The notes: generated by a model from the sequence alone, not told the origin. A stretch of DNA of 37,860 bases from a virus (IMGVR_UViG_2541047762_000007), one strand, 5' to 3'; positions 1 to 32,477 are shown, numbered from the stretch's first letter. Made by a program: numbers and translations.

Positions 1-933
1 TTATGCCGCCAGCACGCGGTTGCGTCCATCATTTTTCGCCCGATACAAAGCATCATCAACGCGTTTAAACAGTTCATCGATGCTTTCATTTCCTTCGTGA
101 TGCGCCACACCAATGCTGACGGTAAAGCGTGGTAAGCCCGAAATACTCACTTTTGCCACGCTTACGCGGATAGTTTCAGCCAGCGAAAGCGCGGTATCCA
201 GTGGGGTTCTTGGTAGCAATAAGACAAACTCTTCGCCTCCCCAACGAAACACCAAATCGCCTTTGCGAGCGCAACTTTCGAGGGTGCGGGCGAGGGCGCA
301 TAACACCTCATCACCTTTAGAATGCCCATAGAGATCGTTAATGTGTTTAAAACGATCGGTGTCGATGAGCAATAAGCTGTAATCCTGAGCGATGGCGAGG
401 TGCTGCATTTGGCCTGGCTCGGTAATGTGGTAAAACTGTCGCCGATTCAGTAATCCGGTCATCGCGTCATGGTGGGCAGCATGTTCCAGCTGCTCCTCCA
501 GCCGTTTTTGCTCAGTAATATCATGCACAATACATAACATGAGCTTGTCGCCATAAATTTCAATCGGCCCAGCATAGGTCTGCACATGACGAGTCGAACC
601 ATCCGCCAGTTTATGAACAAAATTCAAAGGCTTATGGCCACCGGGTAAATGCGAAATTTCATGCATGATAGGCATGACGCGTCGCCCGAGCATATTTATT
701 TCCCAGGTATGTTTCTGGCACATCGTTTCATGGTTATAGCCATAGAAATTGAGCGCGGCGAGGTTAGCATCGACGATTTGGCCATCTCGTGAGGGGTCAA
801 TCAACAACATTGGTGCAGAGTTAGTCAGAAAAAAGCGCGCATAAAAACCTTGTTTTTTGCGCTGATAATTTGCCGAGCGACTGGCTTTTAAACCCAGCGT
901 TGCCGGTGCTTCGATACCTTCGAAAATAATCAC
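1..933 (-). CDS. PAS-GGDEF diguanylate cyclase (host gene; 5' end may be interrupted by prophage)
   Basis: Translation has the GGDEF active-site motif (RWGGEEF) and a PAS-like N-terminal region. Stop codon at 1..3. First codon is GTG at 931..933, and the frame stays open upstream to 982 with no ATG. Confidence 0.85.
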   Translation of the reverse strand: MIIFEGIEAPATLGLKASRSANYQRKKQGFYARFFLTNSAPMLLIDPSRDGQIVDANLAALNFYGYNHETMCQKHTWEINMLGRRVMPIMHEISHLPGGHKPLNFVHKLADGSTRHVQTYAGPIEIYGDKLMLCIVHDITEQKRLEEQLEHAAHHDAMTGLLNRRQFYHITEPGQMQHLAIAQDYSLLLIDTDRFKHINDLYGHSKGDEVLCALARTLESCARKGDLVFRWGGEEFVLLLPRTPLDTALSLAETIRVSVAKVSISGLPRFTVSIGVAHHEGNESIDELFKRVDDALYRAKNDGRNRVLAA

Positions 934-1034: not shown

Positions 1035-1607
1035 TTACATTTCAGGTTGCGTTATGACAGTCCCAACAGGGTGGTAGCGGTAGATCGTTGACAGTCCAAT
1101 ATCATAGATAATTGCCAGCCGCTTTCTGTCATACCCTTTCTGGAGCAATCTTGCGATCTGCTCATGCTGCTCCTTCGTCAGTTTCGGGCGACGTCCTCCA
1201 ACTCTCCCTTGTGCTCGCGCAGCAGCCAGTCCTGCCAGCGTGCGCTCAACTATCAGTTCACGCTCCATTTCTGCCAGTGCACCCATCATATGAAAAAAGA
1301 ACCTTCCCATCGGAGTGCTGGTATCGATTGAATCCGTCAGACTGCGAAAATTGACACCTTTTGCGCGTAGCTCTTCTGTGAGAGCAATGAGGTGTTTCAT
1401 TCTTCTACCCAACCGATCCAGCTTCCAGACCACCAATGTATCCCCTCTTTTAAGGCACTTTAAAGCGCGTTTCAGGCCTGGTCGTTCCGACTTGGTTCCG
1501 CTCATTTTGTCCTCAAAAATCTGTTCACATCCTGCGCACATTAATGCATTGCGTTGCAAATCTGTGTTTTGGTCATTTGTTGACACACGTATGTAGCCAA
1601 TCAGCAT
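1035..1607 (-). CDS. gin: Gin/Pin/Hin-family serine DNA invertase
   Basis: Translation from the ATG at 1607 (MLIGYIRVSTNDQNTDLQRNAL...GRRPKLT...) closely matches my recollection of Mu Gin and e14 Pin. The ORF-track start at 1736 is probably an upstream artefact. Confidence 0.9.
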   Translation of the reverse strand: MLIGYIRVSTNDQNTDLQRNALMCAGCEQIFEDKMSGTKSERPGLKRALKCLKRGDTLVVWKLDRLGRRMKHLIALTEELRAKGVNFRSLTDSIDTSTPMGRFFFHMMGALAEMERELIVERTLAGLAAARAQGRVGGRRPKLTKEQHEQIARLLQKGYDRKRLAIIYDIGLSTIYRYHPVGTVITQPEM

Positions 1608-1673
1608 TAAAAATACTCCCTTTTGAGTGGTTAAAGTACTGAGATAATGTGGGGAGGATTTGAGAGATAAACG

Positions 1674-1889
1674 TTGGTTTAGGAGAAGGCTCGGCGCTAC
1701 CCGTTGGTGTGCCTGTTCCGTGGCCCACCGCCACACCGCCAGCAGGCTGGTTAAAGTGCGACGGGCGCGCCTTTACAAAAGAACAATATCCTGTTCTGGC
1801 CAGAGTCTACCCGACCCTCCGTCTTCCCGATTTACGCGGTGAGTTTATCCGTGGATGGGACGACGGGCGCAAAGTTGATACAGGACGTA
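1674..1889. repeat. Left inverted repeat of invertible tail-fibre segment (gix-like site at 1664..1687)
   Basis: About 216 bp here is the near-identical reverse complement of 3061..3279. Its outer end (gagataaacgTTGGTTTAGGAGAA) resembles the Gin/Hin crossover half-site consensus. Confidence 0.7.
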
Positions 1890-2191
1890 AGTTGCTGTCC
1901 GCACAAGGGGCAACGCTGTTAAGAACAGCAATGCTGGATTATTATAACCAGGACACTACGGGAACCTCGGGGATAGTCGGCATGGGATTCAACAATGAAG
2001 ATTCCATTACAGACCTTCGTGAGGGCAGCTTTAAAATGCCGGACGGGACAACATTCAGCAATCCTGCCATGGCAATGTCAGACAATGGTATGCAGGCTAC
2101 TATTCTGACCTCTATCAGAAGCGGGTATGCGAAGGGTATCACTGTCAGACCCCGTAGCATTGCACTTAATTACATTGTGAGGGCAGTTTAA
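1709..2191 (+). CDS. Alternative tail-fibre C-terminal cassette (Sv'-like), promoterless in current orientation
   Basis: The first ~60 aa are nearly identical to the region of the 2812..4398 fibre that begins ~150 aa from its C-terminus (PVPWPTATPPAGWL...LRLPDLRGEFIRGWD), then diverge. It lies inside the invertible segment on the opposite strand. Confidence 0.7.
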   Translation: MPVPWPTATPPAGWLKCDGRAFTKEQYPVLARVYPTLRLPDLRGEFIRGWDDGRKVDTGRKLLSAQGATLLRTAMLDYYNQDTTGTSGIVGMGFNNEDSITDLREGSFKMPDGTTFSNPAMAMSDNGMQATILTSIRSGYAKGITVRPRSIALNYIVRAV

Positions 2192-2805
2192 TGAGTAACA
2201 CTGCAGTTCTGGATGAAAACGGTATCGCCACTGTAGCGGGCGATATCACTGTATATCACTATGACGAGGAAACCCGGGAATACACCTCATCCTCTGTGGA
2301 GTATCTCGCCCTTGGGGTGGGTACTCCGGCACATTCGTGCGCCGATGCACCGCCGGAAGCAATTTCGGGTTACGTGGTTTGCCGGACTGCCACGCTGAAC
2401 GGGTGGGAGCATGTGCCTGATCACCGCGGCGAGACGGTATACAGCACGGAGAACGGTAACCCCGTTCTGATTACCCAACCGGGTGATTACCCGGCGGACA
2501 CCACCACAAAACAGCCAGCCACGCCATGGGATACCTGGAACGGTGAGGCGTGGGTAACCGATACTGAACGGCAGCGAGCCGCAGAACTGGAGGTTGCCAG
2601 ACAGCAACGCCAGCAACGGGTGAAACAGGCGATGGCGTCCGTCGATCTTATCAACCTCAAACTGCGTGCTGGTCGCAGTCTGAAACCAGAAGAAACGGCA
2701 AAACTGAACGCCGTGCTGGATTATATCGACGAGCTGAACGCACTGGATATCAGCAAGGCACCTGAAATCAGCTGGCCGGAAGCGCCACTGGCGCTTGCCG
2801 GCTGA
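2191..2805 (+). CDS. Tail fibre assembly protein (Tfa/U-like)
   Basis: Position directly after the alternative fibre cassette (TAATG overlap), ~200 aa, composition typical of lambda Tfa / Mu U chaperones. Confidence 0.75.
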   Translation: MSNTAVLDENGIATVAGDITVYHYDEETREYTSSSVEYLALGVGTPAHSCADAPPEAISGYVVCRTATLNGWEHVPDHRGETVYSTENGNPVLITQPGDYPADTTTKQPATPWDTWNGEAWVTDTERQRAAELEVARQQRQQRVKQAMASVDLINLKLRAGRSLKPEETAKLNAVLDYIDELNALDISKAPEISWPEAPLALAG

Positions 2806-2811
2806 ACGGTA

Positions 2812-4398
2812 TCACGCCGCCCTCACGATATAGTTAAATGCGATATTGCGGGGGCGAGCTGATACATAAGCCCACCAGTCATATCTTTGTGCACCTTTAG
2901 AGGATGCATCAAATATCCACTTTTTGCCATTTATGACCCCCAGTTGATTAGAGGTTAAAGCGTCACCAAATCCGTATTGTGTAGAGCCGAGCGAACTGAT
3001 ATCTCCGGTATTATTATCATCAAAACCGGATACGATAGTCCCTTCCTGAAATGAAAGTACCGTACGCCCGGTATCAACCTTGCGACCACCGTCCCATCCA
3101 CGGATAAACTCACCGCGCAAATCGGGAAGACGGAGGGTCGGGTAGACTCTGGCCAGAACAGGATATTGTTCTTTGGTGAACGTAGCTCCGTTGCACTGTA
3201 ACCAGCCTGCTGGCGGTGTGGCGGTGGGCCATGGAACCGGTACACCAACAGGCAATGCAGAGCCTTCCCCCAAACCAAGGTAATTGAGGACATCTTTTAT
3301 ACTGCCCTTAGCGATAATAGCGCGACCAATAGCTGTAAGGGTTGCCAGCGCTGCGCGGTCTGCTCCGGTAAAATAAGGCAACCGATCTGCTGCAGTGGCA
3401 AGTCCTGCCAGAGCAGTGAGCGTGGCATCTGCCGGTTGTTTTCCGTTTGCCAGATCGTATGCAGCCTTGACGGCCTTTGGTGTGGCGGCCAGCGTTTCAG
3501 ACGTGCTGTTGATGGCGCTGCTCAATTGTACGGTGCCTTTTGCCGTCAGCGAGGCAGCAGGCACTCCCGTTATCTGACTCCACGGGTGAGTGTGGCTGAC
3601 GGGCGCCTTGCCGGCTGCAAGGTCGTATGCAGCCTTGACGGCCTTTGGTGTGGCGGCCAGCGTTTCAGACGTGCTGTTGATGGCGCTGCTCAATTGTACG
3701 GTGCCTTTTGCCGTCAGCGAGGCAGCAGGCACTCCCGTTATCTGACTCCACGGGTGAGTGTGGCTGACGGGCGCCTTGCCGGCTGCAAGGTCGTATGCAG
3801 CCTTGACGGCCTTTGGTGTGGCGGCCAGCGTTTCAGACGTGCTGTTGATGGCACTGCTCAGTTGTACGATCCCTTTACGGGTCGTTGTTGCATCCTGGGC
3901 TGTGTATTTTCCCCGGGCCAGATCATACGCGATTTTCACAGCCTTCGGCGTGGCAGCCTCAGTTTCTGATTGACTGTCCGTGGCACTGCTCAGCTGTACG
4001 GTGCCTTTTGCCGTCAGCGAGGCAGCAGGCACTCCCGTTATCTGACTCCACGGGTGAGTGTGACTGACGGGTGCCTTGCCGGCTGCAAGGTCGTATGCAG
4101 CCTTGACGGCTTTTGGTGTGGCGGCCAGCGTTTCAGAGGTGCTGTTGGTGGCACTGCTCAGTTGGGTGAACCCCTTAGCTGTCAGTGTCGCGTCCGGGTG
4201 GTTACGGGAACGTACGTGTTCAGCCAGTGACTGTGCGGCTTCCTCCGTTTTTTTCTTCAGCCATTTCGTCCTGTTTGCCAGTTGCCGGGGGGCTCGATTT
4301 GATATCCCGTCTGCACCACCCAGAACCGGATCTGATGTCTCCAGTTGATAGATATTTTCTTCCCACTTTTCTGTTTCATTCAGGTTTCCCATAATCAA
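2812..4398 (-). CDS. Tail fibre protein with internal tandem repeats
   Basis: 528-aa ORF with repeated fibre motifs (TAKGTVQLSSAxxSTSETLAATPKAVKAAYDLA, SHTHPW). C-terminal part lies inside the invertible segment. Position matches Mu S. Confidence 0.9.
   Translation of the reverse strand: MIMGNLNETEKWEENIYQLETSDPVLGGADGISNRAPRQLANRTKWLKKKTEEAAQSLAEHVRSRNHPDATLTAKGFTQLSSATNSTSETLAATPKAVKAAYDLAAGKAPVSHTHPWSQITGVPAASLTAKGTVQLSSATDSQSETEAATPKAVKIAYDLARGKYTAQDATTTRKGIVQLSSAINSTSETLAATPKAVKAAYDLAAGKAPVSHTHPWSQITGVPAASLTAKGTVQLSSAINSTSETLAATPKAVKAAYDLAAGKAPVSHTHPWSQITGVPAASLTAKGTVQLSSAINSTSETLAATPKAVKAAYDLANGKQPADATLTALAGLATAADRLPYFTGADRAALATLTAIGRAIIAKGSIKDVLNYLGLGEGSALPVGVPVPWPTATPPAGWLQCNGATFTKEQYPVLARVYPTLRLPDLRGEFIRGWDGGRKVDTGRTVLSFQEGTIVSGFDDNNTGDISSLGSTQYGFGDALTSNQLGVINGKKWIFDASSKGAQRYDWWAYVSARPRNIAFNYIVRAA
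3061..3290. repeat. Right inverted repeat of invertible tail-fibre segment (gix-like site at 3265..3290)
   Basis: Reverse complement matches 1674..1889. TTCCCCCAAACCAAGG at 3265..3280 is the inverted partner of the left site. Confidence 0.7.
3440..4200. repeat. 168-bp (56-aa) tandem repeats within tail fibre gene
   Basis: Three near-identical units are in register at ~3455, 3623 and 3791, followed by two more diverged units. The plus-strand shadow ORF 3436..3969 shows the same period. Confidence 0.85.
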
Positions 4399-4973
4399 CT
4401 GCTCCCGTGGTTATAACTGCCATCATGGATGGCAGTATTGTTATAGCGAATGGCCACAGACTGATACTCCAGGCTGGCCAGATGGCAGCGGGCCGGTGCA
4501 AATGCAGCCAGCGTCTGACGCAGCATCGCGGCCTGATCGTTAGTAATGGGCTGTTTCAGAATAACGCGATAAACTGCCCAGGCGGCTGCATCTCCATGAA
4601 CAAACAGTCCGTTATAGCTGCGATTGCCGTCGTAACTGAGACGACCTGTGCCTTCAATCAGATCCACTTCACCAAAGCCAAAACGGCGGATAACTTCCCG
4701 GATTGACCACGGCGTCCCTTTATACCGGTGCAGTTCGATGGCTGCTTTTATAAGCATGCGGCGAACATCGTCCGATTCCGCCAGCTCCCAGCCATCGCCA
4801 GACAGTGAGAACTGCTCGCCCAGCCATGGCAGCGCGGAACTGTCGACGATATCGACGAGAAAGACCATCAGTACGCTCAGGTCGATGTTATCCAGCCGTC
4901 CTGCCAGTCTTCCCAGCGTCCTGAGACTGATATCACCCTCAAGCGGTGGCGGGAGTTGTAATGGCTCAGTCAT
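4395..4973 (-). CDS. Baseplate protein (P2 gpI / Mu gp48-like)
   Basis: Size and position between the baseplate J-like gene and the tail fibre; overlaps its neighbours. Confidence 0.7.
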   Translation of the reverse strand: MTEPLQLPPPLEGDISLRTLGRLAGRLDNIDLSVLMVFLVDIVDSSALPWLGEQFSLSGDGWELAESDDVRRMLIKAAIELHRYKGTPWSIREVIRRFGFGEVDLIEGTGRLSYDGNRSYNGLFVHGDAAAWAVYRVILKQPITNDQAAMLRQTLAAFAPARCHLASLEYQSVAIRYNNTAIHDGSYNHGSS

Positions 4974-6069
4974 CAGACACTCCAGTCATGTTAAGAGTGA
5001 TTGCCGTACAGTTTGCCCATTCGTTTTCTGCCACCACCCGCAGTGCCGGTGTCACCAGTTCAACCTGGTACACCCCGGAAACGGACAATGCACTGATAAT
5101 CTGGCTGGGGACAATATCGCGCCCCAGCGTGGCGGCACGTGATGCCACCCAGTTCTGTATGGCGCTGTTAGCGGCATCTTTTACAGACCTGGCATCCTGA
5201 TCACGATAGATCGTAATCCTGGCTTCAATGGTGTAATCCACCTTCACTGGTGTTTTAGCCCGCACTGTATCAGTGAGTGGCCTGACTTTCTCATCAGAGC
5301 AGAAACTCTCTACCAGCGTGAGAACACCGCCGTCCGGCAGACCGGTACTGAGCAGCGGATACAGATCTACGGTCCCGGGAACCGGGGAAAGCACAGCAAC
5401 ATCGACAATGTTGGGATGGGCCTGCATGGCATGAAAGCGGTATGCGCCACGGCTTCCGGCATTGGTGAATGACTCCGGGGCCAGCCTGATACGCTCCCGG
5501 AGCCTGTCATCGTCTTCCTGTTCTGAACCGCCGGAACTGGCCGTCAGATTGCTCACCAGCAGGTCGACGTTATCAATCTCATCGAGTAACTGACTGACCT
5601 GCGCAGGTTGCCAGCCGTTACCAGCGGTACCGGGTTCGGTACAGGTGGACGTGACATTGACCAGCAGCAATCCGGCCTTCAGTACCACATCTGTATCGGT
5701 GGCAAAAATAACGCTGTCGGAAGCGCTGACGCGGGTGCCTGCCGGGATCAGCACATCAATGGCCAGTGCCTCATCTACGGAGAACTGGAGCGTGGTGGTG
5801 GCAGGCTGCGCGGCAAGACGGTATACACCGACCAGTTCACCGAGGTAATCAATCATCGGCTCACGGGCAAAGGCGACCAGATTCTGCTTTGCTGCCTCCT
5901 GTACCGCAACCCTGACCAGCATTTCGCGATAGGCCCACAGATCAATCAGCAGACGTTCTGCCTGTGCCGGGTACAGCGTTTTGCCGGTATCCGCTTCATA
6001 CTTCGCAATCATTTCTGCCGTGATTTTGTCGGCATCGCGTTCAATAAAATCGGGTTCTGTCAGCGCCAT
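4966..6069 (-). CDS. Baseplate J-like protein (Mu gp47 / P2 gpJ-like)
   Basis: 367 aa, position and composition match baseplate J family; translationally coupled to neighbours. Confidence 0.8.
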   Translation of the reverse strand: MALTEPDFIERDADKITAEMIAKYEADTGKTLYPAQAERLLIDLWAYREMLVRVAVQEAAKQNLVAFAREPMIDYLGELVGVYRLAAQPATTTLQFSVDEALAIDVLIPAGTRVSASDSVIFATDTDVVLKAGLLLVNVTSTCTEPGTAGNGWQPAQVSQLLDEIDNVDLLVSNLTASSGGSEQEDDDRLRERIRLAPESFTNAGSRGAYRFHAMQAHPNIVDVAVLSPVPGTVDLYPLLSTGLPDGGVLTLVESFCSDEKVRPLTDTVRAKTPVKVDYTIEARITIYRDQDARSVKDAANSAIQNWVASRAATLGRDIVPSQIISALSVSGVYQVELVTPALRVVAENEWANCTAITLNMTGVSDD

Positions 6070-6755: not shown

Positions 6756-7352
6756 TCAATGAGAATGGTGATTAGAGTTAGAGCCATCAGACAGCATACT
6801 GCCCGTGGCATGGGCATTCCCTTTAATCTCGATATTGCCATGGATGGTCGCGGTAACACCTTTACCACCAGAACCCGCCATGCCTCCTTCGTAAATCAGC
6901 TTTCCCCTGACACGCAGCTCTCCGGTAAGTTCGGTTTCCGGTGCGTCAATCGTGGCTTTCTGTGTTTTCAATACCACATCAGCACCACACTCAATGACAA
7001 TATGCTCAATGCCGCCCCGGATGGTCAGAGTGTGCGTCTTCCGGTTGTAGCTGTACTCTGCACCATCAGCAAACCGGGTTCCCCGGATATTTTTGTCACT
7101 GAACGGTGGTTTATCGACGTCTGAATACACCGCGCCCAGAATAACACCATCCTCGCCGTTGGCATCGAGCAGCACCTCAACCTGCTCCCCCACGTCAGGG
7201 AGCCAGTAATCTTTGTTATCCTGGGTATTGCGCTGCAGCACGTTAAGCCAGTTTGTGCGCAGGTTATCGCATTCAGGCAGACGAACGCGGGCCTGAACCC
7301 TGTCGGCATCAACGGCACTGACCGTACCGACCTGACGAGTGACACCAGTCAT
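6756..7352 (-). CDS. Baseplate spike/hub protein (P2 gpV / Mu gp45-like)
   Basis: 198 aa with glycine-rich, His-rich C-terminus typical of gpV spikes; sits between the gpD-like and gpW-like genes. Confidence 0.75.
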   Translation of the reverse strand: MTGVTRQVGTVSAVDADRVQARVRLPECDNLRTNWLNVLQRNTQDNKDYWLPDVGEQVEVLLDANGEDGVILGAVYSDVDKPPFSDKNIRGTRFADGAEYSYNRKTHTLTIRGGIEHIVIECGADVVLKTQKATIDAPETELTGELRVRGKLIYEGGMAGSGGKGVTATIHGNIEIKGNAHATGSMLSDGSNSNHHSH

Positions 7353-8503
7353 TTTTTCTTCTCCTTAATCACCGTCGATGTACTGCCATCCGGGTGATAA
7401 ACCGTGAGTTTCTGAGTTTTTTGTTTTTTCCCTCTTGTGACTGGCCCCCGTGCCACTTCCAGCTCTGTGGTGTAGCCGCTGTTACGGTCAAACGCATGGC
7501 GGGCAGTGGTTATGAGCCATGGCCCGGATAACTGCCCAAAACTCACCAGTTCAATTTTGTTGCCTGCTGTCAGTTGAGGTGTTCCCGTCAGCGTCAGGGA
7601 GCCGTTCTGCTGGTATTCGTTATGTCTGGCCAGTGCTGAATCCGCTTTAATCCGGGCACTGTCCGGGTCGCTGACGCGGCTGTTAACTTTAAGTGAGTCA
7701 GCGCTGGTAACCTTACCACCTTTGAGCTTTTTGTCGCTTTCACGGGTACCACCATCAGCTTCGTAGACGATCAGTTTTTTACTGCTGCTTTTCTGGTGTT
7801 TTACCTTTGCAGATTTATAGACCCGGTTGATGGTGTCACGCAGGGAAAAGCGGGCCACATCCTGCGGTTTTAACTGCCTGACCGGCTCCTGACTGCGCAG
7901 TGTGGCCAGATGAGAAAAAATCAGCTGGTCACTGACCACTTTCACTGCATAACCATACTCGCTGGCCAGCCGGCGCAGAAAACCCACGTCGGTTTCAGCA
8001 TACTGGGTCACCCGGTCGATTCTGATGGACTCAATGCTGCCCACCAGTTTCAGCCGGTGCTTTCTGGCAATCCGCCCCGCAACAGCTGCCAGCGTGGTGT
8101 TCTCAAAACCACGACTGGTTTTAGTCCGCAGGGCACTGTTAACCGAGGTGGCCACCCCACGGATAGAAACAACGGAAGCGGGCGAACTCACTTCGATCTC
8201 GTCTATAGAGAACGTACCGCAGGACAGCAGCTTCTCGCCCTGATAGCCCATTTTCAGCGTCAGCGTGTCACCCTTGCCCGGATACCATTTATCCAGCCAG
8301 CGGCCATCGGTGTCGTCCAGCTCCACCTCAATGGTATCGGACTCATTTTTGATGTTATCGCTCCAGGTCACACGGGTGACATAAGGCGCGATATCAGAGG
8401 TGATGTTTTTCTGCAGATACCACAGAGTGAACACCGGTGTCAGCACATCGCTGACGCCGGTTAACGCTGATGTGACTTGCGCAGTGCTGTTTATCTCAGC
8501 CAT
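7349..8503 (-). CDS. Baseplate hub / late control D-like protein (Mu gp44-like)
   Basis: 384 aa, position downstream of tape measure and upstream of the spike gene. Confidence 0.75.
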   Translation of the reverse strand: MAEINSTAQVTSALTGVSDVLTPVFTLWYLQKNITSDIAPYVTRVTWSDNIKNESDTIEVELDDTDGRWLDKWYPGKGDTLTLKMGYQGEKLLSCGTFSIDEIEVSSPASVVSIRGVATSVNSALRTKTSRGFENTTLAAVAGRIARKHRLKLVGSIESIRIDRVTQYAETDVGFLRRLASEYGYAVKVVSDQLIFSHLATLRSQEPVRQLKPQDVARFSLRDTINRVYKSAKVKHQKSSSKKLIVYEADGGTRESDKKLKGGKVTSADSLKVNSRVSDPDSARIKADSALARHNEYQQNGSLTLTGTPQLTAGNKIELVSFGQLSGPWLITTARHAFDRNSGYTTELEVARGPVTRGKKQKTQKLTVYHPDGSTSTVIKEKKK

Positions 8504-8706
8504 GGGGCAATATCCTCTTCTGTACGGGCTTCTTCAGCCTCAATCACCGGGATCAGTAACAACAGCCCGGAGGGCAGCACCGGCGTGATGGCCACGTGCG
8601 GATTGGCGGCAATAATCCGGGGATAGCCCAGCGGGTCACCGTAGTACTGCCATGCCAGCGAATCCCAGCGCTCTCCGTCACGGGTAACATGTTCAAGAAA
8701 CATCAC
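8491..8706 (-). CDS. Tail protein X-like (LysM-like)
   Basis: 71 aa, pattern resembles P2 gpX (W..YYG.P......ANP). Confidence 0.55.
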   Translation of the reverse strand: MMFLEHVTRDGERWDSLAWQYYGDPLGYPRIIAANPHVAITPVLPSGLLLLIPVIEAEEARTEEDIAPWLR

Positions 8707-9587
8707 ACACTCCTCGTCAGTATTCTGGCGGCCACTGCACTTAATCCCGGAGACATGCGGTTGAATGCTGTGCCGGCGGCGTTAAGCTGCCCGGAAACGG
8801 TATCCAGAGCACCTGCAATATTTCTTTTGTCCACACCACTCAGCGCAGACTGTGCCTGCTGTACATACGTGGCTGCTTCGCTGGCTGTTCTGGCCAGACT
8901 GATGGCATCGGGCATGGATTCAGAGAGTGCGTTAAACGCCGGAACACTTTTCCCCAGAGCCCCGGAGATATTACCCAGTCCGCTCATCAGCCCCGGCACA
9001 CGGGTCAGTGCGACAACGGGGTTATCCTTCATTTTCTGTGTCACCCGAACGGCGCTGATAGTGGTCTGGAGTACAGACTGCGCCTGTTTCGCATAGTTGA
9101 CGCCGTTGCGGATGAACTGCGCCACCCCTGAAGGTGAAGGAATGGCACCGGAGACCGCCCCGACACCCGGGAGCTTCGTGCGTATTGCCGGTGGTTGCAG
9201 AGGATTTTTCGGGTCACCGGTGTATTCCCGGAGAGACACGGTGGCACTGACAGCCAGCACGTTGCCGGTACTGTCAGTCTGCTCGCTGGTTGCAGTCACA
9301 TCGGTAATCACGAACCAGCCGCGATAGTCACCGTTGCCGAAGACCAGCGCCAGTGCCTGATGGGCTTTCATGGCTGTTCGCAGTCTCGCCAGCTCCACAT
9401 CGGGTACACAATAATGCTGATGGAAAACCAGAGTTATCTGGATTTCGTCCAGCCTGTCGCCGACGAATTGCAGGCCAGGCTTCCCCCCGATGCGGGCATG
9501 CTCCGCATAATCGACGCCGAACGTGGCCTCGAAGCCGTCCCAGTAGGTAATCAGCTCAAACTCAATATCACCCAGTACGGCAAACAT
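8703..9587 (-). CDS. Tail protein (Mu N / DNA circulation protein-like position)
   Basis: 294 aa, immediately downstream of the tape measure gene and coupled to it. Confidence 0.55.
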   Translation of the reverse strand: MFAVLGDIEFELITYWDGFEATFGVDYAEHARIGGKPGLQFVGDRLDEIQITLVFHQHYCVPDVELARLRTAMKAHQALALVFGNGDYRGWFVITDVTATSEQTDSTGNVLAVSATVSLREYTGDPKNPLQPPAIRTKLPGVGAVSGAIPSPSGVAQFIRNGVNYAKQAQSVLQTTISAVRVTQKMKDNPVVALTRVPGLMSGLGNISGALGKSVPAFNALSESMPDAISLARTASEAATYVQQAQSALSGVDKRNIAGALDTVSGQLNAAGTAFNRMSPGLSAVAARILTRSV

Positions 9588-12538
9588 CAGCGGTACTCCT
9601 TACGTTGTTTCTGAGCCAGCAGACGCTCCAGCATTTTTTCCAGCTCATGCAGACTCATATTCAGGGCACCAGTCAGTCCTGCAGGCGCTGTGGTTTCCCT
9701 GCCATTGAGGAAAAACTGAGGATTAAAGCTGACCTGGATACCACCAGACGTTCCACCGCCGGTTGCAGCTGCACCACGGCCTGAATATCCGGCAGCCAGG
9801 ATTTCAGGCGAGGGGATACGGGGAACATCCGGTGTCATCTCATTTGCCAGACGTTGCCCTGGTAAAATCGATGCCCGGGTGGAGAGCGGAATAGCGGGCA
9901 TGGAAGACAAACTATTGATTACGGATCCGATCGCATTTTTAGCAGACGACATAAACCCGTTGATATCGGGCAACGGCATACTGAAGCGAACACCTGAAGT
10001 GTTATCCCGTATTTCTGGCCCCTGAATGCTCACGGGCATTTTGGGGAGCAGTTCACTGACCATTCGCTGACCGGCCAGAGCTGCAAGCGGAGTGCTCCGC
10101 TGCAGGCCAATGGCGGCCCCCTGCGCGATATTGTCACCAAAGCCCATAAACACGCGGCTCGGCGAATGAATGCCCAGCTTTTCGCTGAACCAGCCACTGA
10201 TGCTGTCGCCCATTCCGGTTACGCTGGTTTTGAGTGACTCCCATTTGTTTTTGATACCGTTAATCAGACCGTCGACAAGATGGCCACCGAAGTCGGTGAA
10301 CTTTGCCGGCAGCTCAACGCCGAGATATTTCAGCGCAGCTGCAAAGGCTTTATAGAGCAGACCTGCCGGCGACCAGTTAATCAGCAGCTTACCAGTTCCC
10401 ACGATACCGCCGTTAAAGGCTTCCTGAATGTCAGCCCAGCGTTGTTTAAACCAGCTACTGATGCTGTCACCCATTCCGGTTACACTGGATTTGAGCGCCC
10501 CCCATTTGTTTTTGATACCGTTAATCAGACCGTCGATAAGATGGCCACCGAAGTCGGTGAACTTTGCCGGCAGAGCAACGCCGAAATATTTCAGCGCAGC
10601 CGCAAAGGCTTTATAGAGCAGGCCTGCCGGCGACCAGTTAATCAGCAACTTACCAATTCCCACAATGCCGCCGTTAAAGGCTTCCTGAATGTCAGCCCAG
10701 CGCTGTTTAAACCAGCCACTGACTGCCCCCCAGTTGCGGTAGATAAGGTAAGCTGCTGCCGCGACAGCGGTGATAACGAGACCGATGGGATTCATCATCA
10801 GCGCACGTCCAATCCAGAGAACAGCACGTCCGGCGAGCATAATTCCGCGAACCAGCCCCCCGGAGAGCACGCCACTCAGTGTTCTGGCTCCTCTGGCGAC
10901 GGCGCTAAATCCGGTCACCAGCCAGCGGAGCTTACCGCCTTGCCCCAGTGCGAGCGACAGACGAAGCCAGTTGGCCCGAAGTAAAACAGCATTTTTCCAG
11001 ACACTTACAAAGGGGGAAATAAGGAGATTCAGCCCCAGTTTGAGACCAACAGTCGCTATCTTAATCGCAAGGAGCGCACTGATGAGCTTAAAAGCCCCAC
11101 TGACAAATTGCGGGTGAGTCGCTACCCAGTGTTTTGTCCCCTGAATGAGTGGGAGCAAGTCCTGAGTCAGAGAAATAAAAGATGGAGCTAATTGATCGCC
11201 CAGCGTAATTGCCAGATCGCGACTGCTGACCATAAGTGCTTTAGTGGCTTCAAGGGGAGATTTCAGCCGCTGATCATAAGCACTGGCAAGCAAATCGTTA
11301 TCCGCAGCCCTGAGAGCACCGGCGCGGATCTCGCGATATCTGTCCATGTTGGCCAGCATCGGGCGGATAAATGCCATGACCTGCATATCCGCGAACATAT
11401 CACCCAGACCAAAGTTTTTCGCCAGAGCCTGAAGTGCCTCATCTCTTGCCGTATCATTCTTTATTTTCATGGCGGATTTGAAGCCGGCCAGCGCTTCGGG
11501 GCTTTTGGCATTGAGGTAACGTTCTATAACACTCAACATCCCTTCAATCGGAGAGATCCCCGCAGCCTTATAACTCGCAATAGATCCCTGCAAATCAATA
11601 CCCAGATCAGCAAACTGTTTCTGAGTATCGCGGGCAAAAATTTTGGTAAGAAAGTTTTTAAAATTATTGGCTGCCTCGTCGGTGGAACCTGCACCGATTT
11701 TTGCTATCTGGAGACTGGCCCCGATTTCAGCAACAGCCTCTTTTCCACTGGCAATACCCGCCATCATTGGGGCCAGGGACTGCATCCACTTGACCTGATC
11801 CGGGATTTCAAATGACCCCTGGTCACCGGCATAAGCCATAATATTCTGAACGGCACCAAAATCTCTGGCCGCACCTTTCAGGGAGTTTTGCCAGACTGCG
11901 GCCACTTTTGCCCAGTCCTGAGCAGACGTGCGTGTTGCCGTTGCCGCGCGGGCAATATCCGGCATCAGAAAACCGATATCTGACACATTATCAATATTGT
12001 CGCTGATGAGTGAACCCACCGCCTCCTGCAGCTCATCCTGATACTGATTGTATTTAAGCGCCCAGCCTTTTATCTGTCCGGCAAGTGCATCCCGCGTTTT
12101 ATTGTCATATTTTGCGGTGATCGACATATCAATCATTTTGTCCTGAAAAGACATGGACTGCTGAACGGCAGGGGAAACCGTATGATAAACAGTCTGTGCC
12201 ATGCCATACGCTTCAATCCCCTGACCATACAGCGCCATGCGGTTAGCTTTCAGCGCATCACTGGTAGCGGATGCCGCTGACAGACGGCGCTGCTGGCGCT
12301 CAATTTGCTCCATGGTGCGGCTTACCCGCAGCAGCTCGCTGTTGAGATGCTGCATCTGGGAAGAACCCAGTTGACCATAACGTTCTGTTGCACGGGTTAA
12401 AGCGTTCTGACGTTCCTGCAGGCGGCGTGAGGTATCGCTCAGGGAATCAAGCGCACGGCGGGTACCGCTCATTGCAGAACGGAATGTGCTGCCAATCATC
12501 CCGCCGATAACAACGCCGACTGAAAACTGTCCCGACAT
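9587..12538 (-). CDS. Tail tape measure protein
   Basis: 983 aa, helical N-terminus, hydrophobic central segment, located between chaperone and baseplate genes; contains an internal tandem duplication. Confidence 0.9.
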   Translation of the reverse strand: MSGQFSVGVVIGGMIGSTFRSAMSGTRRALDSLSDTSRRLQERQNALTRATERYGQLGSSQMQHLNSELLRVSRTMEQIERQQRRLSAASATSDALKANRMALYGQGIEAYGMAQTVYHTVSPAVQQSMSFQDKMIDMSITAKYDNKTRDALAGQIKGWALKYNQYQDELQEAVGSLISDNIDNVSDIGFLMPDIARAATATRTSAQDWAKVAAVWQNSLKGAARDFGAVQNIMAYAGDQGSFEIPDQVKWMQSLAPMMAGIASGKEAVAEIGASLQIAKIGAGSTDEAANNFKNFLTKIFARDTQKQFADLGIDLQGSIASYKAAGISPIEGMLSVIERYLNAKSPEALAGFKSAMKIKNDTARDEALQALAKNFGLGDMFADMQVMAFIRPMLANMDRYREIRAGALRAADNDLLASAYDQRLKSPLEATKALMVSSRDLAITLGDQLAPSFISLTQDLLPLIQGTKHWVATHPQFVSGAFKLISALLAIKIATVGLKLGLNLLISPFVSVWKNAVLLRANWLRLSLALGQGGKLRWLVTGFSAVARGARTLSGVLSGGLVRGIMLAGRAVLWIGRALMMNPIGLVITAVAAAAYLIYRNWGAVSGWFKQRWADIQEAFNGGIVGIGKLLINWSPAGLLYKAFAAALKYFGVALPAKFTDFGGHLIDGLINGIKNKWGALKSSVTGMGDSISSWFKQRWADIQEAFNGGIVGTGKLLINWSPAGLLYKAFAAALKYLGVELPAKFTDFGGHLVDGLINGIKNKWESLKTSVTGMGDSISGWFSEKLGIHSPSRVFMGFGDNIAQGAAIGLQRSTPLAALAGQRMVSELLPKMPVSIQGPEIRDNTSGVRFSMPLPDINGFMSSAKNAIGSVINSLSSMPAIPLSTRASILPGQRLANEMTPDVPRIPSPEILAAGYSGRGAAATGGGTSGGIQVSFNPQFFLNGRETTAPAGLTGALNMSLHELEKMLERLLAQKQRKEYR
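10190..10715. repeat. 261-bp tandem duplication inside tape measure gene
   Basis: CCAGC(C/T)ACTGA...TGCTGTC recurs at 10190, 10451 and 10712, in frame (87 aa). Two full copies of WFKQRWADIQEAFNGGIVG...SVTGMGDSIS appear in the protein. Confidence 0.85.
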
Positions 12539-12613: not shown

Positions 12614-12871
12614 CTATGATTTGTCGCCGTACTCGCTTTTGATTTGCTCTTCAGCCTGCTCCAGCCACATCTCCAGATCGTCAGTATCGAGGGCATCAAT
12701 CTCCCCCGGCTGAAACCGGAACCATCTCGCCAGCAGCCCCTGCGCCTGCGTCAGCGCCCTGGTTGCTCTCACCCATCCCCGTGATGAGCTGAAATCGTTT
12801 CTGTAACTGCAGGTAATCAGCCAGATCCATATTGTCGAGATCTTCCGGGAGAAGACCAGTACTGCGGGCAA
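12614..12871 (-). CDS. Putative frameshift extension of tail assembly chaperone (GT-like C-terminal part)
   Basis: Open frame overlapping the 3' part of 12696..13031. Its distal part (EIDALDTDDLEMWLEQAEEQIKSEYGDKS) looks protein-like; its proximal part does not. Confidence 0.4.
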   Translation of the reverse strand: MPAVLVFSRKISTIWIWLITCSYRNDFSSSRGWVRATRALTQAQGLLARWFRFQPGEIDALDTDDLEMWLEQAEEQIKSEYGDKS

Positions 12872-13031
12872 TCAGCGGTTCGTCCCAGTCTGCCGGGTTT
12901 TTGCTGATTTTGCGCACCTGCTTCAGGTCTTTTACCGTCAGGCGTTTCAGTTCAACCTGCTCAATTCTGGTGCCTGCAGCAGTGGTGAAGGGATAAGACA
13001 ATTTAAAAGTATCGGATGGGGTCTGTGACAT
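12696..13031 (-). CDS. Tail assembly chaperone (G-like), candidate frameshift donor
   Basis: 111 aa directly upstream of the tape measure. A second ORF (12614..12871) overlaps in the +1 frame and ends just before the tape measure gene. Confidence 0.55.
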   Translation of the reverse strand: MSQTPSDTFKLSYPFTTAAGTRIEQVELKRLTVKDLKQVRKISKNPADWDEPLIARSTGLLPEDLDNMDLADYLQLQKRFQLITGMGESNQGADAGAGAAGEMVPVSAGGD

Positions 13032-13412: not shown

Positions 13413-13934
13413 TCAGCCCCCGATATTGATACGGTAGTCAGTCAGTTGATCAACACCGCCGACCCGGAAGATGTTGGCCAGATAGTCCAGTTGCAGCAGC
13501 TCTTCACCATCCAGTACCTGTCTGATATACGTGCAGGTGAAGCTACTGGAGAACTCGGCGTTCTCGTGCTGTTTGAACGTCCCCAGCGGGTTCTTCTTGA
13601 ACATAATCGTCAGGAAGGTGACCAGCGGGATTTCGTCAATCAGCCCCTGCGAGCTGTAGCGCTGGACGCTGGAACGACACTGCAGTGCCAGCGACCTGTA
13701 CGGGTTCGCGGCTGACAGCATCGCATCGCGGTAAAAGCTGTTCCATTTGATTTCGCCTTCCAGTTTGTCAAAACCAGCCGGGAGTTCCACCTTACCCACC
13801 ATCCCCAGCGCCTTGTGTTCCTGCATAATCATGGAGACATCGGGGAGTTTAACTTCCTCAGCCCGTCCCAGCAGGTTAGTACCATCCAGATAGATGTTGG
13901 CATTCGTGATGCGGTTTATCTCAATCTTTGACAT
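13413..13934 (-). CDS. Tail tube protein (Mu M / P2 FII-like)
   Basis: 173 aa immediately downstream of the sheath gene. Confidence 0.8.
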   Translation of the reverse strand: MSKIEINRITNANIYLDGTNLLGRAEEVKLPDVSMIMQEHKALGMVGKVELPAGFDKLEGEIKWNSFYRDAMLSAANPYRSLALQCRSSVQRYSSQGLIDEIPLVTFLTIMFKKNPLGTFKQHENAEFSSSFTCTYIRQVLDGEELLQLDYLANIFRVGGVDQLTDYRINIGG

Positions 13935-15361
13935 CAGTTGCCCCCTTTCAGGGTTAACAGGTATTCCGAGGTGATCTCAGTCTCAAACGTCAGTCGCTCC
14001 AGCGGCGGCGGTGGCGTATATTTGTAGCTCAGCAACAGGTGCCCGGCGGCCAGCTCCGTCTCCGGATTGCGGGCCGGATCAAACCAGCAACGGAAGCCCA
14101 GTACCGCACCATCACCAGTCATTTTGCGACCGTAGGCGTTGACCGACTCCGTCAGTGCATCAATCAGCGCCTGAGTAATCGGCATGTCGATGTACTGCTG
14201 GCTGAAATAACGAATGGACTCGTTGATCACATCACCGGTGCGGCGAACGTTCTCAAAGTTACGCATATGGGTGACCGTTGGCCATGCTGCCGTCCGGTTA
14301 CCCCACAGACGAAGGCCGCTGCCGTAACTGCTGAATACCGTGGTGATCCCCTGTTCGTTAAGCAGGTTCACCTCACTCTGCGGGTCATCAATCATCGCGG
14401 ACAGCTGGCGCTCCACGCCGGTGATCCCCAGAATCTCCTGATTGGAGGATGACCACCAGTAGCCCTTGTCCAGATCGACTCTGGCACGCAGACCTGCTGC
14501 ACGCTGGCTGAGCGGCTCCAGACGCTCTGTGTTTGTCACCGGGTCATATACCTTCACATGCGGATAGCACAGACGGACGCGGTCGGAGCTGGTATTGAAG
14601 TTGATGGTGCCTTCCGGGCCACGACCTGCCAGAGCCTGTGCAAAGGTGGTACCGACAGGCGCATCAATGTAGGTTACCGCGCCCAGCTTCTCTGCCATGG
14701 CGATAAGCTCAACTGCGACACTCTTCTGGGTGCAGAACACCGGCGCAATCAGAATTTTGGCGAAATAGCCGTACAGGTTGAAGCTGTCGTTAAGCAGCTT
14801 CATGCCGGTTCGGTTTCCGGCGCTGTTCACCCCGCCGATGATGTCCGCCGCAGTCACCTTCGACGGGTCCGCGTACTCATAGCTCACCTTCACGCTGCCA
14901 CCGGCCTCAATAGCCTTGCCCAGGTTCGTGAGCACACCCGCCTGCGCATCAACACGGTAGTCCGTGTTCGCCGTGTGGGTGGTGCTGCCTTCACTGTTTT
15001 TCACCACCACATTAGCGACAACCGGATGCGCCAGTCTGGCCTGCCCTGTCGATTTGTCAAAGGTAACCACCTCATCCTCGATCGCCGTTTTATGTTTCGC
15101 CGGGTCGAGGACGTTAATGACCAGAACGGTGCCTGCACTATGGTCATAAATCGCATCCAGCGCCTGCGGAATGGTAAAGCCGGTGAACTGGCTGCCAAAT
15201 GCCGCTGCGTCTTTCTCAGACAGGCACTGTACCAGCGTATTGACATCCCCCATCGGGGCGGTACCAATCAGGCCAATAACGGCAGATTTCACCGTTTTAA
15301 CCGGGCGGGCTCCGTTTTCCACCTCAATGGTTTCGACGCCATGCAGATAGTTAGCTGCCAT
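13934..15361 (-). CDS. Contractile tail sheath protein (Mu L-like)
   Basis: 475 aa, sheath-like composition, followed by the tube gene. Confidence 0.9.
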   Translation of the reverse strand: MAANYLHGVETIEVENGARPVKTVKSAVIGLIGTAPMGDVNTLVQCLSEKDAAAFGSQFTGFTIPQALDAIYDHSAGTVLVINVLDPAKHKTAIEDEVVTFDKSTGQARLAHPVVANVVVKNSEGSTTHTANTDYRVDAQAGVLTNLGKAIEAGGSVKVSYEYADPSKVTAADIIGGVNSAGNRTGMKLLNDSFNLYGYFAKILIAPVFCTQKSVAVELIAMAEKLGAVTYIDAPVGTTFAQALAGRGPEGTINFNTSSDRVRLCYPHVKVYDPVTNTERLEPLSQRAAGLRARVDLDKGYWWSSSNQEILGITGVERQLSAMIDDPQSEVNLLNEQGITTVFSSYGSGLRLWGNRTAAWPTVTHMRNFENVRRTGDVINESIRYFSQQYIDMPITQALIDALTESVNAYGRKMTGDGAVLGFRCWFDPARNPETELAAGHLLLSYKYTPPPPLERLTFETEITSEYLLTLKGGN

Positions 15362-30707: not shown

Positions 30708-32477
30708 ATGAATGCTGCCCTGACTGAACGACTGGTTTATGTCGCCCGCGCGGCACGTGACGCGGGGCATGGTAAACGCGGTGCAATATACGACGCTGCC
30801 TGTGCTGAACTTGGCATGTCCCGCGCCACTCTGCTGCGCAGGCTGAAGGAGGTCTCTGTGACTGATAAACGCAAAAAACGCGCCGATGCCGGGCGCAGCG
30901 CCCTGACCCGCGACGAAGCCGCGCTGATATCTGCCACACTGCGTGAGGCCACCCGCAAGAACGGTAAGCGTCTCTATTCCATCGCGGATGCAGTGGAAAC
31001 CCTGCGGGCTAACGGCTTTATCTCCGCAGGCAGAACAGATGAAACCACCGGTGAGTTTTTCCCGTTGTCCGAAGATGCCATCAGCCGAGCCCTGCGTAAC
31101 TATGGCCTGCACCCGGAACAACTGGATGCCCCTGCACCACATACTGAAGTGGCCAGTCTGCATCCCAATCATGTCTGGCAGATTGATGCCTCGCTCTGCA
31201 CGCTTTACTACCTGAGTAATGGACACAAAGGACTGCAGGTGATGGACAGCGCGAAGTTCTACAAGAACAAGCCCGCTAACCTTGCCCGTATCGCCAGTGA
31301 CCGCGTGTGGAGTTACGAGATTACCGACCATGCCAGCGGCTGGATTTACGTTGAGTATGTGACGGGTGCGGAATCCGGTGAGAACCTGTGTTCTGTGCTT
31401 ATCAACGCCATGCAGGAGCGTGGCGGCGCAGACGTGCTGCACGGCGTGCCAAAAATACTCTATCTCGACCCCGGCTCGGCAAACACCGCGGGTATGACGA
31501 AAAACATGTGCCGCTCACTGGGCATTGACCTGATAGCGCACAAGCCGCATAACGCCCGCGCCACCGGACAGGTGGAAAAGGCGCGTGACATTATCGAACG
31601 CAAGCTGGAGCCGGGTCTGAAGTTCCGGCCGGTTCACAGTCTGGAAGAACTCAACGCGCTGGCCGCGAAATGGCGCAGCCACTTTAACGCCACGGCTGTT
31701 CACAGCCGCCACGGTAAAACCCGCACGGATATCTGGCTGAAGATTACTACTGAGCAGCTGAAAAAAGCGCCTTCCGTTGAGGTATGTCGTGAACTGGCTG
31801 TGGCGGCACCAGAACTCCGCAAAGTCACGCCAAAACTTCGTGTCTCGTTCCGGGGCACTGAATTTGACGTATCAACGGTACCGGGCGTACTGGTCGGTGA
31901 AAAACTGATGATTACCCGTAACCCGTGGCGCAGCGATGTGGCACAGGTGGTTCTGACCGGTGAGGACGGCCACGAGACGTTCTTCCTGGTCGAAGAGGTC
32001 AGAAAGAACGAGTTTGGCTTTGCTGAAGGCGCGGCGGTATTTGGCGAAAGTTACAAAGCCCTGCCGGAAACACCGGCGCAGACGGCGGCAAAAGAAACTG
32101 AAGCGCTGGTCACCGGTACAGACAACGCCACAGATGCAGCTGCCGCACGCAAGGCGAAGGCGCTGCCGTTCGGCGGGCGGCTTGACCCGTATAAACATAT
32201 TGATGACGCCACACTTCCGGCCTATATGCCGAAGCGCGGTCAGGCCTCTGACGTACGCGGGCCGCGCACTGAACAACGTCCCATGACTCATGTGGAGGCC
32301 GCGAAAGCCCTGCGCGATAAGTTCAGCGCCGACGGCCTTACCTGGACGCCGGAACATTACCGCCAGTTAACGGCACAGTACCCGGACGGCGTACCGGAAG
32401 CCGCACTGGATGAAGTCATGGCCACGCTGACCACGCCGGCACGCAGCAGTGTTATCAGCATTGTTAACGGCAACTGA
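30708..32477 (+). CDS. DDE transposase (Mu A-like)
   Basis: 589 aa with N-terminal HTH-like region and an integrase-type catalytic core (HVWQIDAS, LYLDPGSANTA, ATGQVEKA); followed by a MuB-like ATPase. Confidence 0.8.
   Translation: MNAALTERLVYVARAARDAGHGKRGAIYDAACAELGMSRATLLRRLKEVSVTDKRKKRADAGRSALTRDEAALISATLREATRKNGKRLYSIADAVETLRANGFISAGRTDETTGEFFPLSEDAISRALRNYGLHPEQLDAPAPHTEVASLHPNHVWQIDASLCTLYYLSNGHKGLQVMDSAKFYKNKPANLARIASDRVWSYEITDHASGWIYVEYVTGAESGENLCSVLINAMQERGGADVLHGVPKILYLDPGSANTAGMTKNMCRSLGIDLIAHKPHNARATGQVEKARDIIERKLEPGLKFRPVHSLEELNALAAKWRSHFNATAVHSRHGKTRTDIWLKITTEQLKKAPSVEVCRELAVAAPELRKVTPKLRVSFRGTEFDVSTVPGVLVGEKLMITRNPWRSDVAQVVLTGEDGHETFFLVEEVRKNEFGFAEGAAVFGESYKALPETPAQTAAKETEALVTGTDNATDAAAARKAKALPFGGRLDPYKHIDDATLPAYMPKRGQASDVRGPRTEQRPMTHVEAAKALRDKFSADGLTWTPEHYRQLTAQYPDGVPEAALDEVMATLTTPARSSVISIVNGN

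Follow-up and report, generated by a model that had tools for sequence, protein, structure and literature searches.

The tail tape measure gene of a BcepMu-like prophage of Escherichia coli carries two in-frame tandem copies of a 261-bp segment. This two-copy form is the majority allele among E. coli carriers of the gene (about 70%); alleles with one or three copies occur as well. The explanation that accounts best for the data as a whole, and which we consider probable, combines a single old duplication, unequal recombination between its two products, the resulting copy-number alleles, and a unit that would lengthen the phage tail.

The tape measure gene and its genetic context

The window, i.e., the whole stretch of 37,860 nt analysed (IMGVR_UViG_2541047762_000007), contains on its minus strand an open reading frame of 983 aa (positions 9587..12538). 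The deduced protein matches PF10145 (74 bits vs. a cutoff of 33.2, aa 159–340), TIGR01760 "tape_meas_TP901" (58.2 bits vs. a cutoff of 28.8, aa 120–493), phrog_28 (E = 5e-136), and phrog_5690, and the PF10145, TIGR01760 and phrog_28 matches identify it, at the level of sequence similarity, as a tape measure protein with the TP901 family core. PGAP labels the corresponding gene of a 99.7% identical locus (L007) "phage tail tape measure protein". Directly upstream of the repeat array, a hydrophobic, membrane-segment-like region of 137 aa (aa 470–606; 10721..11131, minus strand) can be read from the sequence. A GIHSPS motif just downstream of the array (10157..10174, minus strand) is invariant in all aligned alleles. 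The protein has a second length-variable segment of 71 aa (aa 823–893; 9860..10072, minus strand), which is absent from the related loci L005 and L006, and the edges of which resemble each other (see below).

The minus-strand gene order is that expected around a tape measure gene, with sheath, tube and gpE-like chaperone genes before it and baseplate genes after it. A tail sheath gene (13934..15361; phrog_23 and PGAP name) and a tail tube gene (13413..13934; PGAP name), both on the minus strand, indicate a contractile tail. They are followed on the same strand by the gene of a gpE-like tail assembly chaperone (12696..13031; phrog_166, PGAP "phage tail assembly protein"), which is overlapped by a GpE family ORF in the PGAP annotation, then by the tape measure gene and by a tail protein gene (8703..9587, minus strand) and a gpD-like gene (7349..8503, minus strand). 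A Mu-type (DDE) transposase is encoded at 30708..32477 (phrog_310, E = 3e-147). In a comparison of the tape measure gene only, the closest phage is Escherichia phage PhiKM, classified as Bcepmuvirus, with 96.4% nucleotide identity, and a prophage of E. coli TUM13754 carries a version of the gene with 99.7% identity. Transposase, contractile-tail genes and the similarity of the tape measure gene to those of PhiKM and TUM13754 together mark the element as a BcepMu-like (Bcepmuvirus) transposable myophage prophage of E. coli.

The 261-bp array

Tandem Repeats Finder delimited an array at 10188..10722 (period of 261, 2.0 copies, 93% matches, 0% indels, score of 944), in which the 261-bp unit is present 2.05 times, in frame with the tape measure gene. 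A preliminary description had reported that 87 aa of a tape measure gene are duplicated in tandem and in frame (261 bp) at 10190–10715; the array indeed lies within the 983-aa ORF with the PF10145 match, and the position was right to within a few bases. The strand had been absent from that description, and the minus-strand orientation of the gene is the sole correction to the observation.

Unit A (aa 607–693; 10460..10720, minus strand) and unit B (aa 694–780; 10199..10459, minus strand) have 79 of their 87 residues and 243 of their 261 bases in common, i.e., B shows 18 nt and 8 aa differences from A. With a probability of about 3e-110 for at least 243 matches in 261 positions at a fixed offset, the repeat is not explicable by chance. 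Both full copies were thus correctly recognized in the preliminary description. The stretch that had been taken for the beginning of a third copy encodes SGWF directly after the array (10187..10198, minus strand). It reflects 13 nt, TCAGTGGCTGGTT, that are the same at the array start and immediately past the array, and represents boundary homology with the array start and not a decayed third unit. In a BLOSUM62 self-comparison of the protein at offsets of 5–500, no internal short period of the 87-aa unit (e.g., 3 × 29 aa or 11 aa) rose above shuffles, and only the offsets 87 (score of 132) and 71 (score of 47) exceeded the shuffle maximum of 39, the latter owing to the similar edges of the 71-aa segment.

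Copy number among E. coli genomes

The tape measure gene was found in 634–636 of 5426 complete E. coli genomes. Copy number was assessed in two even-step samples of 60 carrier genomes each, supplemented by counts of matches with ≥80% coverage. In samples 1 and 2, respectively, the two-unit form was present in 41 and 42 of the 60 genomes, the three-unit form in 11 and 10, a single unit in a closely related allele in 1 and 2, and a single unit in a divergent allele in 4 and 5, with 3 and 1 genomes being partial or unclear. Both samples give approximate shares of 70% for two copies (983 aa), 17% for three copies (1070 aa), and 10% for one copy (896 or about 821 aa). A single place covering ≥80% of the query, which corresponds to the one- and two-unit forms, was found in 512 of 634 records; the remaining 122 mostly showed the three-unit pattern. 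The best matches, dozens among the matches listed, aligned to the full 2952 bp of the query as one BLAST piece of identical length, and the two-copy 2952-bp gene is estimated to occur in about 440 complete genomes overall. A mosaic junction at the array end, suspected from BLAST rows stopping at query position 2351, was rejected, as the C-terminus is conserved in the protein alignment; the rows stop there because the pieces are joined differently when a third unit is present.

Among individual alleles, those with one unit and 896 aa are represented by the loci L002, L009 and L010, and those with three units and 1070 aa by L003, L004 and L011, all from closed genomes. Strains whose closed genomes have the 896-aa allele include NZ_CP180393, NZ_CP103972 and NZ_AP026794, and the 1070-aa allele is present in NZ_CP159118 and NZ_CP051738. 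Two units and 983 aa are found in the window, in L007 (PGAP coordinates only), and in L008 of an ST131 strain. The proteins of L005 and L006, with 821/825 aa, have one unit and also lack the 71-aa segment. The reading frames of all translated example alleles are open. The same lengths of 896, 983 and 1070 aa recur in the 120 best protein clusters at 90% identity, besides fragments and a few near-variants (894–995 aa, and one of 1084 aa); one cluster of 983-aa proteins comprises 1995 member sequences, and no four-unit protein was present among these 120 clusters. Some of the 896-aa database proteins originate from assemblies of short reads and might owe their length to a collapsed repeat, yet three closed genomes have the 896-aa allele. 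A comparison of tape measure length with close relatives, as suggested in the preliminary description, therefore yields 896, 983 and 1070 aa for one, two and three units, 983 aa being the commonest. The same repeat architecture in all homologues, which that description had named as a possible counter-finding, was largely encountered in the form of the two-copy majority, but not in all homologues.

Age of the duplication

Units A and B differ at 6.9% of their bases, with dS = 0.178, dN = 0.044, and dN/dS = 0.245 (Nei-Gojobori), and both copies are kept under purifying selection. Outside the array, other E. coli alleles are at dS values of 0.02–0.03 from the window, and the one-unit L005 lineage is at 0.26. 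The synonymous divergence of A from B is thus 6–8 times that between alleles. While A and B are 18 nt apart, the lone unit of L005 or L006 is 23–34 nt away from either of them, indicating that the duplication occurred after that split. Taken together, these distances indicate that the 87-aa module was tandemly duplicated once, long before the present E. coli alleles diversified. In the one-unit relatives L005 and L006, (S/G/D)WF is found at both edges of the lone unit. Such a short direct repeat is a plausible microhomology for the original event, which probably proceeded via the (S/G)WF-coding homology flanking the lone unit in one-copy relatives.

The preliminary description had regarded the duplication as a recent event. 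A recent, strain-specific duplication, marking a fresh rearrangement in this prophage, might be suggested by the fact that the copies are still 93% identical and free of indels, and copy number does vary within the family. However, the same A|B layout with the same diagnostic substitutions occurs in about 70% of the complete-genome carriers as well as in the 1995-member protein cluster, and synonymous divergence between the copies exceeds that between alleles several-fold, which renders a recent origin very improbable. Nor is the duplication a private or unusual event, as the wording of that description might be understood, with about 70% of some 635 complete-genome carriers having two copies. 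The possibility that the second copy is an assembly artefact, likewise raised in the preliminary description, is not far-fetched in principle: the repeat breaks short-read assemblies, as illustrated by the PhiKM record, which has a 100-N sequencing gap at exactly the repeat, and it misleads automatic annotation into false pseudogene calls, PGAP breaking an open 1070-aa three-copy gene into two "pseudogene" pieces. Against this stand the 18 positions at which the two copies differ and the presence of the same 2952-bp gene in hundreds of independently closed genomes, one of them 99.7% identical; these genomes exclude an artefact for practical purposes, and we assign it a negligible probability.

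Unequal recombination between the units

Eight residues distinguish A from B and allow the composition of each array to be read. Two-unit alleles read A|B, three-unit alleles read A | (B-start, A-rest) | B, and the one-unit alleles are assorted chimeras with an A-type start and a B-type end. Such chimeric units are the reciprocal products expected of a misaligned exchange, in which B of one copy pairs with A of another. The crossover points differ. In the middle unit of three-unit alleles, the switch from B-type to A-type is located at about nt 65–73 in L004 and at nt 6–18 in L011. In L002, the lone unit is A-type at first and turns B-type between nt 75 and 93, and that of L009 is identical to it; in L010, which has an ST131-type background, the A-to-B switch occurs much earlier. 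The L002 and L009 genomes are from Korea and Hong Kong.

When full-length proteins were clustered by their flanks alone, one-, two- and three-unit alleles were interleaved in at least three flank lineages. From the differing crossover points and this interleaving we conclude that, as far as can be reconstructed from the sequences, a unit was gained independently at least twice and lost independently at least twice. Instead of independent unequal crossovers, exchange between prophages, whether co-resident or incoming, may account for part of the interleaving by moving arrays between backgrounds. In the mechanism we favor, the two 93% identical 261-bp copies serve as substrates for unequal homologous recombination, by which the predominant two-unit form (983 aa) repeatedly gives rise to alleles with three units (1070 aa) or one (896 aa). 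The term "recombination-prone", applied to the region in the preliminary description, proved to be appropriate in view of the one-, two- and three-copy alleles in complete genomes and the chimeric units with differing crossovers.

Predicted effect on tail length

That the length of the tape measure protein sets the length of the tail has been reported for lambda gpH, based on in-frame deletions and duplications (Katsura & Hendrix 1984), and for T4 gp29 in a contractile tail (Abuladze 1994), both as cited in PMC5099701 and PMC13585406. Those were laboratory constructs of tape measure proteins unrelated to the one discussed here, whereas the alleles of the window gene represent a natural polymorphism with a predicted effect on the tail. 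In the light of the findings on lambda, T4 and TP901-1, the longer tail predicted in the preliminary description is a reasonable expectation. In phage Mu, the tube lumen is occupied by a trimer of the tape measure protein, held at its C-terminus by the hub and spike, and a protein of about 690 aa goes along with 30 rings with a rise of about 35 Å (PMC11915804), which corresponds to about 1.5 Å per aa. Phage KS10, with a tape measure protein of 811 aa and a tail of about 140 nm, gives about 1.7 Å per residue (PMC2628397). If the protein encoded in the window likewise spans the tube lumen in an extended form and determines how many tube and sheath rings are assembled, one more unit would, by analogy, make the tail about 13–15 nm or 3–4 rings longer. 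The calibration with Mu and KS10 would predict tails of about 136–155 nm for the 896-aa, 149–170 nm for the 983-aa, and 163–185 nm for the 1070-aa protein. A search for solved structures related to the tape measure protein did not reveal a match at E ≤ 0.01. An AlphaFold2 single-sequence model of aa 596–800 is almost all helix, with a pLDDT of 49.7, which is too weak for a claim on conformation.

According to the main alternative, the units are real and variable and yet do not act as a ruler. Since the array directly follows the 137-aa hydrophobic region, it may lie in a membrane-active portion of the protein, whose length would not be related one-to-one to tail length; in such a membrane-inserting or channel-forming distal part, copy number would tune DNA delivery or be nearly neutral, leaving the tail unchanged. 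The richness of the unit in glycine (14 of 87 residues) and aromatic residues (12 of 87) is compatible with such a role, as is the observation that the most C-terminal repeats of TP901-1 play a part in plaque formation and internalisation (PMC5099701). However, the Mu tape measure protein fills the tube lumen, and the purifying selection acting on both copies makes strict neutrality unlikely. We consider a function unrelated to tail length unlikely. A more far-reaching proposal holds that the one-, two- and three-unit alleles are a maintained tail-length polymorphism rather than neutral churn, with steps of about 13 nm generated at appreciable frequency by RecA-type unequal exchange in lysogens and selected by how deep the surface layer of the host is (O-antigen or capsule), and that the module is a general "expansion cassette" of contractile tails. 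This proposal is speculative and, in our opinion, quite unlikely to hold in full. The reading we prefer is the more modest one of old duplication, unequal exchange and a tail-lengthening unit, in which copy-number variation would be, by analogy with the systems discussed below, an ordinary way for phages to vary the length of their tails.

Comparison with known tape measure proteins

In-frame tandem units that vary in number are already known from tape measure proteins (PMC3271669, PMC5099701), and the array of the window works alike. In TP901-1, deletions in the repeat region and the preceding hydrophobic region shorten the tail proportionally, and duplications scale as well (PMC5099701); the authors proposed that the repeats ease natural duplication and deletion (Mahony 2016, PMC5099701; also Pedersen 2000). 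The protein encoded in the window shares with that of TP901-1 the family core (TIGR01760, PF10145) and the layout of core, hydrophobic region, tandem repeats and C-terminal domain. However, TP901-1 is a siphophage whose 29 units of 11 or 18 aa show a Trp/Phe periodicity, whereas the window has a unit of 87 aa, present in 1–3 copies and without detectable internal periodicity, in a contractile-tailed Mu-like phage. The tape measure proteins of mycobacteriophages and other phages contain 11-aa units in variable number, which have been used to rebuild histories of duplication and loss (Belcaid, Bergeron & Poisson 2011, PMC3271669). Unit number likewise varies among the close relatives of the window gene (1, 2 and 3 units), and the same logic of reading history applies, but the unit comprises 87 instead of 11 aa, its sequence is unrelated, and the record consists of A/B chimeric units spread over hundreds of prophages from one host species. 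Because no short period was found, i.e., neither units of 11 or 18 aa nor a fixed Trp/Phe spacing, the array falls outside the class of 11/18-aa aromatic repeats.

BcepMu, phiE255 and KS10, as well as Mu with its tape measure protein gp42, represent the same phage type and gene order as the window. The BcepMu and phiE255 proteins align to aa 1–816 of the window protein with 34–36% identity, about 754–778 codons facing 816 query residues, which is consistent with a single unit in each. Mu gp42, a protein of about 690 aa, did not appear in the matches to the window tape measure protein.

Neither Pfam nor NCBIfam provided a model for the 87-aa unit, sub-threshold noise being the only signal. A search with unit A against 1.84 billion representative proteins retrieved 564 proteins at E ≤ 1e-3. 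The best 150 of these 564 matches include 97 proteins of at least 600 aa, in which whole modules or parts of modules were counted: 56 proteins have one copy, 29 have two, 10 have three, and 2 have four. Module spacings in these 97 proteins cluster at about 42–45, 74–76 and 87 aa. At least two near-complete units are present in 21 of the 97 proteins, and in 5 of these 21, namely that of the window and those of four other lineages, the units of the protein are each other's nearest relatives, indicating lineage-specific duplications elsewhere too. Across a wide superfamily of tape measure proteins, the module has hence been amplified time and again, and the window is one instance of this.

In a targeted literature search, we found no description of the 87-aa module or of its one-, two- and three-copy polymorphism in E. 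coli prophages; for PhiKM, the search returned only unrelated names with the prefix phiKM. A 2026 survey characterised myovirus tape measure proteins as mostly lacking tandem repeats (PMC13585406), so that a contractile-tailed phage with a polymorphic repeat of this size is somewhat atypical, yet the case involves no new principle, and the understanding of how tail length is determined is unchanged by it. The alleles described here form a natural series of one, two and three modules of equal length in otherwise near-identical tape measure genes. They occur in an inducible, Mu-like, contractile-tailed phage that is frequent as a prophage in clinical E. coli, ST131 among them, and, given the scarcity of repeats in myovirus tape measure proteins, the series lends itself well to testing the ruler model in a myophage.

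The tape measure module and its mosaic context

The 87-aa unit repeated in the tape measure protein is a widespread tape-measure module: unit A (window positions 10460..10720) gave 564 matches among representative proteins. A search of Pfam and NCBIfam with the unit returned no family. In some of the matching proteins, e.g. P0144 and P0122, parts of the unit, namely sub-units of approximately 43 aa and 75 aa, have been amplified separately.

The gene that carries the array is itself a mosaic. Of the 94 differences between the window and the ST131-type two-unit allele (L008), 60 fall within one 400-nt stretch (window positions ~10739..11138, gene nt 1401–1800), located directly upstream of the array. 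The allele type represented by L006, which has one unit, is strongly divergent over aa 100–470, yet about 95% identical beyond aa 470. The protein also shows another, older change in length: a 71-aa segment at aa 823–893 (window positions 9860..10072) is, according to protein alignment, present in the window and in the 896-, 983- and 1070-aa alleles (one, two and three units, respectively), and is missing from the one-unit 821- and 825-aa alleles (L006 and L005). The two edges of the segment are alike (PLAALAGQRM... and ...ASILPGQRL), and self-comparison at an offset of 71 scored 47, as compared to a shuffle maximum of 39.

Routine pipelines are defeated by the tape measure repeat. In the record of the Bcepmuvirus PhiKM (PQ738613, positions 4914..5240), a sequencing gap of 100 N falls exactly in the array, and the annotation splits the tape measure gene into two CDS. 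The three-unit gene of NZ_CP146591 (1501..4713) is open and codes for 1070 aa; PGAP calls it as two partial pseudogenes.

Tail-fibre region and probable left prophage end

A second in-frame tandem repeat of the window (3448..3876; period 168 bp or 56 aa, 2.6 copies, 97% identity) is located in the tail-fibre gene, an ORF on the minus strand (2812..4398) matching tail-fibre PHROGs. Inverted repeats of 229 nt at 1671..1899 and 3053..3281, which are 86% complementary and separated by 1153 nt, enclose three elements: the 3' portion of the tail-fibre gene, an alternative fibre end in opposite orientation, and a fibre-assembly gene; the ORFs listed with this region are 1035..1736 (–), 1709..2191 (+) and 2191..2805 (+). 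As judged from the PGAP names at the TUM13754 locus, an E. coli prophage locus near-identical to the window, a recombinase gene adjoins the inverted repeats. Together, the inverted-repeat region, the fibre genes and the recombinase look like an invertible host-range cassette of the type of the Mu G segment.

At the TUM13754 locus, host sequence on the recombinase side of the prophage begins directly with php, coding for a phosphotriesterase-related protein, and continues with yhfU and yhfT. The leftmost ORF of the window (1..933, minus strand) therefore is probably host php, and the prophage probably ends near position 950–1030.
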